A DNA stretch of 64,000 nucleotides. It comes from Leucoraja ocellata. Its lineage: Eukaryota. Made by a program: the position numbers and the translations under genes. This document shows, piece after piece, positions 23,986-28,717 of the stretch. The notes below the pieces were generated by a model. It had not been told where the DNA came from and did no database searches. It saw only the letters and a list, made by a program, of their open reading frames with translations. The stretch covers positions 1,674,001 through 1,738,000 of the forward strand of contig JAWMAR010000078.1 in assembly GCA_036785375.1 (NCBI GenBank), given 5' to 3'. How positions within the stretch are numbered: position 1 is the first letter of the stretch; every line of letters starts with the position of its first letter.

Positions 23986-26208
23986 TGAAAATGTTCCTAG
24001 TATTCACAGTACTTGTAAAATTGATCACTTATTATTGTTGGCAAGACAACAAAATTGCTCTCAGATTCTACGCTGAAGATGTTTACCAATTTTAAGCAAA
24101 ATCACTCAAGATTAAAGAAGGAAATCACATTTTTCATTACAAAGATGCTTCAGAGAGTGAATATACAAAGAGATGTCTTGTTAAAGACAGGGTTCTATCC
24201 ATTTTGTTATGCGAGGGTCATTAATGTGATCATCACATATTATCACAAATAGGTTTTATTTGGAAGAAAGAGTAAAATCGATTGGAAGTAAACGTGTATA
24301 TAATTTTGTATCTAAAATGTTATATTCTGTTAATAATCCCCTTTCATACCTATGACATTTAGAATGTTTGCTGAACTCTAATCTTCTCTCCAATCAAATG
24401 TTTGACTCGTTGACACTTCTAAAAATAATCTTTGTCAGCTTCTCTTTCATGTAATCTTATCGATCTTATTTCTGTTTTGCCAAATCTAGGTTCTTTGCAT
24501 TTTTCCATTCACATAATGCAAGCAGTATTGTCAGGAGTAGCATATCTTGCCTATCCCTTTGAAAAGATGGTGATCACTGCTTTCTTAAACTGCTGCGGGC
24601 ATTAGATTAAGATATTCACATAGAGTTATTAGATAAGGAGTTTCAGGATTTTGACCTGGACATGATTAAGAACTGACAATATATTTCCATTTTTGATCAG
24701 TTTAAAGGGAAACACAGTTTGTGCCTGTTTACTTCACTCTCTGTGGCGTAGATCATGTGTTTAGGAGATATTGTCAAAGCAGCCTTGAAGATTTTTGTAT
24801 CACATTGGCCATAGAAATTACATCACAGCACACCAGTGGTGAAAAGAGTAAATGCTTCTGGTGATGGATGGTGTGCCAAACAAGAGTGCTTTGTTGTCCT
24901 AGATTGTAGTGAATTTTCAAGAGTGGTTAAATCTTTGTTCATCCATGGAGAATATTCCATCATACTACTGGCTTGTGCCTTTTATACGATGAGAAGGCTT
25001 TGGAGAGCAATGGTTTGAGCCCTCTCCTAAGGATGCTGAGCTTCTGACCTGCCCTTGTAGCCACAGTATTATGTGCCTGGTTCAATTAAGTTTCTGATCA
25101 ATGATGATTTGATGCACAAAGACTCCATTGTCATGGTGACAAGCTGACTTAGTTAAATTTGCATAATATGAGCCTCCCCTGACAAAAAAACATCACCAGC
25201 TGCCACTGCAGTGATTTAAATTTTTCGAAGGCAGAAATTTGGAAAGGTGCCCTTGAGTAACTTTGAAACTGCCTTTTAGGCTTTTGTGCCAAGCCTTCTG
25301 TATTCACAGCAATGTGAGTTTCCAGAACTCCAATAAAATTCTCCACAGAGATCAGACCTATCTCGAGTCAAGAGTGAAGTCAAGAGTGTTTAATTGTCAT
25401 ATGGACTGGGAAAAGAACAATGCAATTCTTACTTGCTGCAACTTTACAAGCAAGTTCAGGTGCAGCATACAAAATTGAAGACATATCTCAGCTATGTGTT
25501 CCTGCCTCCTTACTGAGTACAGACTTTCCAAGACAGGGTGTTTGGAGCAAAATTACTGCTTAATTCAAATGTCCCATACAACTGCCCCAGGACACTCATG
25601 ATGCCTCTTTGAAAAATCTAGTAAAAATCAACTAGTGATGGAAAAATATATTAAGTGGGCCATTTGGATGAAATAAAGCATTTTAAAATGTTTCTTATGA
25701 TTATAACTTATCTTTTTAAACTTGCTTGCAGGGAAATTGAATGGAAATTCTCCCTTCCCTGCCAATGACATTACTTCTCAACAGCATTTCTGTAAAATAA
25801 GTTATCTGTATCGATATATCTATATCTATCATCCATTAGTCTGTTATCTATACCTATCTATGCATAGATATATATTACTAAAACTCTCATCTTGTTTGTT
25901 TGTTTGTTTGTTTGTTTGTATGTTTGTATATATGTGTGCGCGTTCCCGAATCGCCGGCCAAACGGTACATGATAGCCATCCAGTTTTTGGGCCACCTTAC
26001 TCAGCATTGTCCTACAATGTAAATTAAACAAGTTTTGTGCAGATTGATGGTATATTTTACAAGTTATTGACATTTAAAACTTAAAATAACTTAAAACATC
26101 GCCCCCACTTGCTGGCCGTGCCCACGCAGTTGGGGGAGGCCCATCAGCCCCGCAAGTGCGCAGTGGGCCTGGTATCCATGCTGCGGTGGGTCTGGGGGTG
26201 GGGAGAGG

Positions 26209-26487
26209 AAGTGCCGGGGACCCGGGGCCTGGGCGCTGGGGCTGGTTCTGGGGGCAGCAGCGCTGCTGCTCCGGGCCCGAGGGGAGGGAGAGGAGCGGGA
26301 CCAGGGGCAAGGACTAGGCCACAGCCTTGGCCTCTCTCTCGCCCGGCTCCAGCCCGCTCGGCCCGTCACCTCCCCCCCTCCCCCCCCCCCCCCCCCCACA
26401 GGCACCCACCTCAAGTACAACTTCATTGCTGACATGGTGGAGAAAACGGGGCCAGCGGTGGTTTACATCAAGATCCTAGGGATGTGA
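26209..26487 (+). pseudogene. HTRA2: Captured fragment of HTRA2/Omi serine protease exon 1
   Basis: Open frame [93 protein letters not shown] gtgagg; matches recalled HTRA2 AWLAVALGAGGAVLLLL...[32 protein letters not shown]. Confidence 0.85.
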
Positions 26488-27040
26488 GGAAGGAGTGGGG
26501 GGATTGAGGGAGAAGAGGCAGTAGGGAGGGAGAGGAAGGAGAAAGTGGGAGAGGTGAGGAGAGCGAGTGGGGGAGGAGGGGGGATAGAGGGAGGGTAGTG
26601 GGGGAGGTAGGGAGTGGTGGATGGAGGGAGAGGAGGGAGGTGAGTGACAGTGGGGGGATGGGATAGGGGGGAGGTGAGGAGTGTGGGGAGGAGGCAGATA
26701 GAGGGAGAGGAGTGGGTAGGGAAGGGAGAGGGGTTTAGGAGGGAGAGGGGAATGACTGAGGATAGGGGAAAGGAGAGGGAGGGAGATGTGAGTGGGGGAG
26801 TGGATGAGGAGAGAATAGAAGTGAGAGGGTGAAGAGGAGGGGAGGAGTGCTTGGGGATGAGGGGGACTGGAGGAGGATAGGGGTAGGAAGACGGAAGGCT
26901 AGGTAATGGAGAAGTGGAGGGGGAAGAGAGAGGAGGGGAGGGAGTGGGTGAGGGGAGGAAGCAGAGGAGGGTTGGTGGAGGCTGGGGAGAGGAAGGATAA
27001 TGCAAGAAGGGAATATGGGGACTGAAGAAAGAGAATGAGA
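26484..27040 (+). repeat. G/A-rich low-complexity tract inside the Helitron
   Basis: Strongly purine-biased GGA/GGGA repeats. Confidence 0.85.
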
Positions 27041-28717
27041 TGCGTTCACATTGATTGCCATTTTATTGCCATTTTAAACTTTAAAAACATCAGCCGCACC
27101 TGCGCAGTTGGAGGGTATGGGTCAGCGGTGCAATATTGCGTTGGGGGAACGGGGCCCAATGGGTCCCACTTGGTCTAGCTTAGTAATAATTTTGCACACA
27201 CACAGAGTAATTAGAATCTGCTTCTCTCAAAAGTATCGTTTTGTCTGTTTTTTAAAATTGTCTTCAACAATCATGTTGATAATTTAATTTTAACAATCAT
27301 AGAATAAACAATCATTCAAATAGTGCAACAAGTTTTTCTGCAATTATATGAGATTGGACTGTGAATTTCAAGAAGCCATCAATGGCACACAGTTCAATAG
27401 ATAATTAGTTAATCTTTTCTCTGATTAACCATTGAAAGACATATTGCACAAAATGTTTTGAAGAGATCATTTTGCTACAACATAGTACACTTAGCATGGT
27501 ACAAAGGCTTCAAGCTTTTGTAAGGAAGCTTTTTAAAGTGGATAGTAGGGAACTCTAGGGGCTCTAGGGGCTCTATAGAGCTCTAGGGGTTAGTGGAGTC
27601 ACGGGGTATGGGGAAAAGGCAGGTACGGGTTATTGATAGGGAATGATCAGCCATGATCACAATGAATGGTGGTGCTGGCTCGAAGGGCCGAATGGCCTCC
27701 TCCTGCACCCATTTTATATGTTTCTATGAAATAAGCATCATCAATTTTGGATGCCCAGGTGAGGAATACCTAAATTTTCAAGATCAAAAAATTACTAATA
27801 ACAAAAATCTGCGGGGAAAAAAACCGGAAGCACTCAGCAGATCAGGCAGCATCATTAATGTTTCACATTGAACACTGCCATCTTTACCAGTTATGAGGAT
27901 GAGTCTTCAACCTAAAATGGTTGTTGTTTCAACTTAAATGTGGATGTTGTTTCTCTAGCCACAGATATTCACTAACCTGCTAAATACTTCCAGTATTATT
28001 TTTCAGATGGCCAGATTTCAACTTCAAATCGCCATGTGCTTTCATCCTTTATTTTGTCTTTCACTTCCACCAGATTCACAAACAGCTTCTTTTCAACTGT
28101 TTGTGAATCTGGTGGTAGTGAAAGACAAAAGACTACTGTTAAAATACTGTGAAAGACTACTGAATGAACTTCTCTTATGCTAAGCCTGTATTCCTGATCT
28201 TCCAACCTACCTTGTTATTTCCCCCTGCACTTTTACAAAATCTGAACTTTCTCGGTTGAAGTAACACTATATTCAATAATCTGGTTATATTTTCCATTTG
28301 CACTACCTGTTTTGCTCATGTATGTTATGATTTGATGAAATAGCATGCAAAACATTTTTTAAATTATATATGTGACAATAATAAACCAATACCAATATCA
28401 CTGAGGTCCATATGTTTTTTAATGGAGTGGAATAGATGCCAGACTTGATGGGATAGGGGCTATGGGGTTGTCTGTTATTGTTCTAAAGCTTGGTGTGTTC
28501 TTAGCTATTCTTTTACACTGAGCCAAAAAAAACTTTGAGGGAAATTAACAAAAACTTGGTCAAGGTTTTTAAGATACAGCTCTGAGAGAGATAGGTCAAA
28601 GTGGAGATTTAGGTCGTACATTTCAGTTGATTCAGTCAATGGTAAAGTGAAGGATTGTCCAAGGGATAATGACTGAAAAAAATCCACTTAATTCACAGGC
28701 TTCAGCAGGTAACAGGT

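Follow-up and report, generated by a model that had tools for sequence, protein, structure and literature searches.

The window analysed here, 64,000 nucleotides from the skate Leucoraja ocellata (G000:C78:1674001-1738000, in an assembly of 3.44 Gb), contains at approximately 25857-27178 a non-autonomous Helitron of 1.3 kb that bears the 3′ part, some 300 nt, of exon 1 of the protease gene HTRA2. Very probably, this exon end and its splice donor were taken from gene DNA in an ancestor of the skates, copied in trans, and then left to neutral decay. The case is a well-supported instance of Helitron gene capture, a process known from elsewhere and new for this group of vertebrates; the presence of a second carrier is unusual, and nothing points to a function.

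An earlier note, made from the letters of the window, had quoted a stop-free frame at 26095-26487 and assigned it to HTRA2 exon 1 with its membrane anchor and protease start. Both statements are confirmed. The frame comprises 130 amino acids without a stop, its best match among solved structures is human HTRA2 (E 7e-8, as compared to 1.4e-3 for HTRA1 and 0.023 for HTRA3), and all four matches in the protein database are elasmobranch HTRA2. The piece is closest to HTRA2 over HTRA1/3/4, with a transmembrane (TM) segment ahead of the protease start; a Pfam search of the peptide recognised no family. With the HTRA2 proteins of sawfish (P0001) and little skate (P0002) the copies share the TM anchor, the ARPV motif, the protease N-terminus and the exon boundary, but they have no catalytic residues, no PDZ domain and no start that could be found, and many contain stops or frameshifts. 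The ARPV motif occupies what we take to be the position of the inhibitor of apoptosis (IAP)-binding N-terminus in human HTRA2. Similarity to HTRA2 begins near 26185-26218; ahead of it, about 30 codons at the start of the frame belong to the Helitron. The long proline run described in the note is a feature of the window copy only, where the run of 8 results from a poly-C expansion (+18 nt compared to the column majority). Longer 5′ versions of the piece occur at L004, L008, L055 and L060, their Gly/Ala-rich matches being unreliable, and no convincing HTRA2 start codon or promoter was found in any copy examined. The frame is kept without a stop across the last ~63 codons in 28 of 75 loci.

The exon piece ends at 26483 and is followed by GT at 26484-85. 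The phase of this boundary was read from the acceptors of paralogues and from the end of a whale-shark protein model (P0013), not from HTRA2's own intron. In three paralogous HTRA genes the acceptor of the next exon splits, in phase 2, the corresponding Arg codon, which follows the first protease strand, and P0013 stops at this Arg residue, in agreement with the phase-2 end proposed from the window. Across the 75 loci the context AG/GTGAGG (a slash marks the junction) is found in 55 and the GT is kept in 66, while the window copy reads AT/GT. Protein searches of the assembly detected no exon 2 continuation in any copy, so the further HTRA2 exons that would have indicated a retrocopy do not follow.

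The main carrier is identified by its termini. Within the ~1.5 kb fetched around the 75 loci, the 5′ motif of the family was present at 41, the 3′ end at 55, both at 36 and either at 60, in line with the many copies inside the same termini for which the earlier note had proposed to look. A stem of at least 6 pairs stands just ahead of the last 11 nt in 68 of the 92 family ends from all fetched loci, as compared to 10% of shuffles, with compensating stem variants present, and T follows directly in 82 of these 92. Two-ended elements terminate in CTAG (33 of 38) or CTAA (3 of 38), many free-standing family copies begin with TC, and head-to-tail junctions, i.e. tandem arrays, are common. Of 25 free elements tested, two have paralogous empty sites that fit insertion between A and T with no duplication: L160 (six matches) and L012 (one match). 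These ends match those of Helraiser, which has a palindrome 11 nt from its end and an A/T target (PMC4778049). By itself the stem of the window copy is not striking in comparison with shuffles (-5.1 kcal/mol, z -1.26), and the segment 27120-27185 folded whole does no better than shuffles (z 0.43).

Candidates for the enzyme source are present. Helitron_like_N gives 120 matches in the assembly, with PIF1 in the same open reading frame (ORF). The motif at 25872-25894 also opens a decayed RepHel element (G000:C21:11047335), which carries part of the family's 3′ region as well and is 70-73% identical on the amino-acid level to young RepHel over most of its length. An abundant young RepHel family has a unit that terminates in the family 3′ motif, but as the match is confined to this end, it was rejected as the exact parent. 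Family ends, stems and RepHel elements with matching ends thus bear out the original suggestion of a Helitron with a 3′ hairpin and a CTAG end. The young family itself (L126-L140, on G000:C2974, C2153, C168, C175, C94 and C303) consists of ~95-98% identical units arrayed in tandem, whose ORFs reach 1851 aa, and is possibly recently active. A query with the 3′ end gave 2103 candidates, and HTRA2 lies within 1.5 kb in only 3 of the 30 best, the window included; the wider Helitron family exceeds its HTRA2-bearing part. The layout of the window copy is given in Table 1.

Table 1. Features of the HTRA2-bearing Helitron, in window coordinates
Feature	Position	Strand	Remarks
Helitron 5′ terminus	25857..25894	+	family motif conserved at 25872-25894
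(TTGT)n microsatellite, just within the 5′ end	25892..25927	+	length differs between copies
Helitron internal non-coding sequence	25930..26184	+	partly common to members without HTRA2; includes the first codons of the frame
Captured 3′ part of HTRA2 exon 1	26185..26483	+	in order: end of Gly-rich presequence, TM anchor (26230-26271), linker, ARPV (26356-26367), protease-domain start (KYNF from 26413); ends in phase 2 within an Arg codon
Poly-C expansion, copy-specific	26372..26397	+	makes the long Pro run
5′ splice donor GTGAGG	26484..26489	+	family context AG/GTGAGG, window copy AT/GT
Purine-rich tract	26484..27035	+	possibly HTRA2 intron 1 in its proximal portion; distal portion common in members without HTRA2
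Helitron 3′ terminus	27085..27178	+	7-bp hairpin 27151-27167, then 11 nt ending CTAG

The fragment is widely spread, as the note had supposed. A 101-nt query against the assembly gave 386 first-look candidates, of which 40 were scored, and a 32-nt pattern across the exon end and donor has 64 exact matches, the reversed control having none. When the DNA and pattern searches and two protein searches are pooled, the HTRA2 piece is found in at least 198 distinct places on 146 contigs. Chapman capture-recapture estimates the number of copies at 346-429, duplicated twins included. This count is inflated by the duplicated twins held in the assembly (14 pairs among the 75 loci) and deflated because all searches favour well-kept copies. 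The HTRA paralogues are each present twice as well (G000 C33, C65 and C64/C1764), often inverted on one contig. Because the paralogues are doubled and near-identical twins occur at 14 copy loci, it is likely that duplicate haplotypes were retained in the assembly. A second haplotype or an empty allele of the window site was not seen among 40 scored of 1146 candidates. At L043, L141, L029 and L144 parts of the exon piece are tandemly duplicated internally, and L018, L143, L144, L151, L152, L169 and L170 form one subfamily, a supported clade.

The copies decay neutrally, with no detectable selection. In a 77-nt core they diverge from the column majority by 9.4%, with 19.5% in CpG columns and 6.8% in the others. 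Raw pN/pS ratios (non-synonymous to synonymous differences) of 0.58-0.65 could be taken for selection, but this signal is gone against a base- and CpG-matched permutation of 60 of the 75 rows (14 twins and one interrupted copy left out), in which 154 synonymous changes compare to 151.9±9.1 expected. The comparison of dN/dS across copies that had been proposed thus gives a neutral result. In three relatives (B, C and D, with flanks some 0.5-4% diverged), flank contigs extend 23-29 nt into the 3′ end of the element, and the window insertion is therefore older than their split. Contigs over the exon region in B, C and D are well above single-copy depth, although depth does not give a copy number. 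In the copies, as in the little-skate protein, the sequence is RLKYNF, where sawfish and most sharks have RFRFNF, and the copies keep the older TGP and PVPPDSP states; since RLKYNF is shared with the Leucoraja protein, the donor probably belonged to the skate lineage. An oligo-dT library of relative B (one run, ~5% read, 12.9 million reads) has a mean depth of 0-0.5 over the exon at 82% likeness, a weak result since host HTRA2 mRNA likewise did not appear in it. Most likely the captured fragment is a passenger without function.

Seven of the 75 loci, at six independent sites, show no Helitron ends and have shared 5′ and 3′ junctions of their own. In 9.9-kb cuts of these loci, four contain both terminal inverted repeats (TIRs) of another element, two contain one and one contains none. 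The TIR pattern has 1439 exact matches in the assembly (control 0), and a sample of 30 TIR loci on contigs C1-C2, read over 1.5 kb, contains no HTRA2. Position -1 is A at all 30 TIR ends and position -2 at 29 of them, mirrored at the other end, and the flanks fit an AT duplication in an A/AT/T site, the signature of ISL2EU elements (PMC4482050). A 7-kb element with the same TIRs (L257:1577-8595) contains a YqaJ remnant (61 bits, 2 stops) and a weak THAP match (E 0.04); a DDE domain was not detected in it. The likeness to ISL2EU (PHIS) in TIRs, target duplication and this YqaJ/weak-THAP relative is accompanied by differences: once the AT duplication is removed the TIR begins with AA, not with the GG usual for ISL2EU, no DDE was found, and a host exon piece is carried (PMC4482050). 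Because of the first two, the second carrier is classified as ISL2EU-like only. Another locus, L248, has an apparently intact pair of ORFs, YqaJ and DDE_Tnp_4/HTH_Tnp_4, which is the ISL2EU layout, but its ends differ from the HTRA2-bearing TIRs. Spy was rejected as second carrier, since its AAA/TTT target does not agree with the flanks (A at -3 in only 3 of 30) and the terminus differs from GGANNNNG (PMC4122938). L248, L253 and L254 are apparently intact two-ORF elements; the L257 relative also holds an insertion of a long interspersed nuclear element (LINE), and the abundant TIR family was sampled as L189-L218.

In view of the above, the following course is likely. A Helitron at or near HTRA2 would have acquired the end of exon 1 by template switching or by bypass of its 3′ end, the latter being a model of Helitron capture (PMC4778049). 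RepHel acting in trans would then have amplified the captured piece, with mosaic subfamilies and tandem arrays as intermediates. Part of it, a nested segment, would later have entered an ISL2EU-like element from a Helitron copy, for example during gap repair, and all copies would subsequently have decayed under methylation.

Several observations weigh against this account. The window copy lacks a clean 5′ TC, which is blurred by (ATCT)n repeats, with the boundary at ~25857-25870 and possibly out to ~25810, and the base 3′ of its CTAG is C. Its insertion site is filled in all three relatives B, C and D, where the earlier note had hoped for an A/T empty site, and in both alignments of paralogous empty sites a few junction bases do not agree with the filled flank. 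Eight of the 75 loci have neither Helitron nor TIR ends within the ~1.5 kb fetched. The host gene and its intron 1 are not seen in the assembly. The distal purine tract occurs in 20-26 of 29 other 3′-end loci, 27 of these 29 without HTRA2 (low-complexity matches included), and it is built of a repeat that looks like the end of the exon with the GTGAG donor. A single origin of the TIR-borne copies is neither shown nor rejected (6 changes, approximately unbiased test, p-AU 0.135).

The most serious competitor, which we nevertheless consider rather unlikely, is that the ISL2EU-like element captured the exon independently or first, with the Helitron version being separate or derived. Copies in the TIR element do not differ much in age from the rest, they have their own junctions on both sides, and no nesting appears in the tree of copies, which is star-like (6 of 57 inner branches supported) and uninformative on carrier order. 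However, the longer Helitron piece includes the whole of the TIR-borne one, which begins near the start of one Helitron subfamily and also has the tract after the donor. The TIR-borne copies are also a minority, and the TIR loci sampled carry no HTRA2 in the 1.5 kb read. Because of the nesting and the shared start, transfer from a Helitron copy to the ISL2EU-like element is favoured, and we regard this later move as reasonably probable.

A second alternative concerns the template. The fragment could stem from HTRA2 mRNA or cDNA and have been fused, by way of a short G-rich microhomology where exon 1 ends, with a purine tract that the Helitron already had, in which case the apparent donor is Helitron sequence. 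The frequency of the distal tract in members without HTRA2 and the resemblance of its repeat unit to the exon end and donor would agree with this. Retrogene capture has been described for bat Helitrons (PMC4224331), and the genome contains a processed HTRA1-like pseudogene. This locus, L068 (G000:C122:3092599-3092838, - strand), is a decayed pseudogene with exons 2 and 3 joined, a stop and frameshifts. A cDNA origin is nonetheless improbable. The piece breaks off precisely where the conserved phase-2 intron would begin, and most loci have a canonical donor there. No copy runs into exon 2, and other members less often have the proximal tract, its first 50 nt (26470-26520) being found in only 8 of 29 other 3′-end loci. 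The earlier note had taken both the donor and the purine tract as signs of capture at the DNA level. The exact boundary and the donor support this; the tract is not evidence by itself, since most family members without HTRA2 contain it, and it is not callable as intron 1 because the host HTRA2 locus is absent from the assembly. Resting on the exon boundary and donor, a capture of DNA rather than cDNA appears likely, with good confidence.

The intact HTRA2 locus for which the note had asked does not appear. Exons 2-8 of HTRA2 were not found in the assembly with sawfish or skate protein queries, which recovered only the paralogues, at 44-72%. HSPA12B was not found either: there is a single HSPA12 locus (45-84% identity), on the contig of the HTRA1-like gene, and we take this to be HSPA12A. 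P0013 is annotated as HSPA12B-like, ends in HTRA2 exon 1 and is probably a fused model of neighbouring genes. HSPA12B likely adjoins HTRA2, given that the two are joined in this model. As HSPA12B is missing as well, a regional gap is more probable than gene loss, and we are fairly sure that the absence of host HTRA2 is an assembly gap. True loss or degeneration of HTRA2 in the skate lineage, with the transposon-borne pieces as its main remains, is quite improbable. It would be consistent with the recovery of three paralogues but not of exons 2-8, with the near absence of exon-1 RNA reads and with the state of P0002. This is the only skate HTRA2 among the proteins listed, a truncated ‘low quality’ model, and its exon 2 has 51 of 69 residues identical to sawfish, fewer than are found in sharks (61-62), turtle (57) or loach (55), a divergence that reflects either fast evolution or sequence error. 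Against loss stand the concurrent absence of HSPA12B and the fact that this Leucoraja model, on a contig of 63.5 kb, keeps the start and exons 2-3. The literature search found nothing on HTRA2 loss in skate or shark.

It is very improbable that some copies are functional as exonised donors or as membrane-anchor cassettes spliced onto host genes. The intact donor in most loci and the stop-free frames mentioned above would allow it, and bat HelibatN3 traps exons (PMC4778049). However, the pooled substitutions are neutral, there is no convincing start or promoter, and the oligo-dT library, a weak test, is nearly empty over the exon. Pfam recognised no host exon in the window: the sole hit among 33 of 41 long frames scanned was one reverse transcriptase, in a scan that would miss short exons. 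A combined scenario, in which the exon was relayed from Helitron to ISL2EU-like element, hundreds of silenced, CpG-decayed copies drove the donor into epigenetic conflict and skate HTRA2 was accelerated or lost as a result, would, if true, be a vertebrate gene capture eroding a conserved mitochondrial quality-control protease; it is very improbable.

NUBPL, of which a fragment was captured by the bat element HelibatN3, is also mitochondrial. The skate element resembles HelibatN3 in being non-autonomous, with TC and CTAG ends, a hairpin 11 nt from its end, a first exon with donor and a high copy number (PMC4224331, PMC4778049). In vespertilionid bats, about a thousand copies of the NUBPL promoter, first exon and part of an intron were spread by HelibatN3, and bat Helitrons are enriched in captures of first exons (PMC4224331). 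HelibatN3 holds a promoter, 5′ untranslated region and start codon and drives chimeric transcripts (PMC4224331, PMC4778049), whereas the skate element holds ~100 codons of coding exon and no promoter, start or transcripts were found for it. A capture bias towards 5′ coding fragments is shared with Heli1Xen1 of Xenopus laevis, for which 19 gene-fragment captures are described, 17 of them from 5′ coding parts, and epigenetic conflict is discussed (PMC12001565). The copy numbers quoted for it are 2-17 (PMC12001565), as compared to at least 198 for the skate piece, which is older (~9% diverged) and has a second carrier. The earlier note had cited maize and bats as precedents; the bat case matches, and the Xenopus precedent and the TIR carrier had escaped it. 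In the literature covered, which did not include subscription journals and supplements, nothing was found that joins Helitrons and HTRA2 (Repbase and Dfam were also outside this search), and at the level of titles no Helitron capture in cartilaginous fishes was found. Repbase and Dfam may already hold these transposon families.

Helitron gene capture, described among vertebrates for bats and Xenopus, is thus extended to cartilaginous fishes at a high copy number, and one host exon is carried by two mechanistically different DNA transposons. In the transposon-borne copies, HTRA2 exon 1 is kept as it was at an earlier stage of the skate gene. For practical work, 200 or more HTRA2-like stubs with good donors can mislead skate annotation and read mapping. 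If copies were spliced or the donor gene degraded, neither of which is shown, exon shuffling or epigenetic conflict could be studied on this family. The remainder of the window contains many short interspersed repeats, and two LINE remnants lie at 20089-20910 and 45548-46504, 93% alike over a 300-nt repeat, the second of which gives an RVT_1 match.

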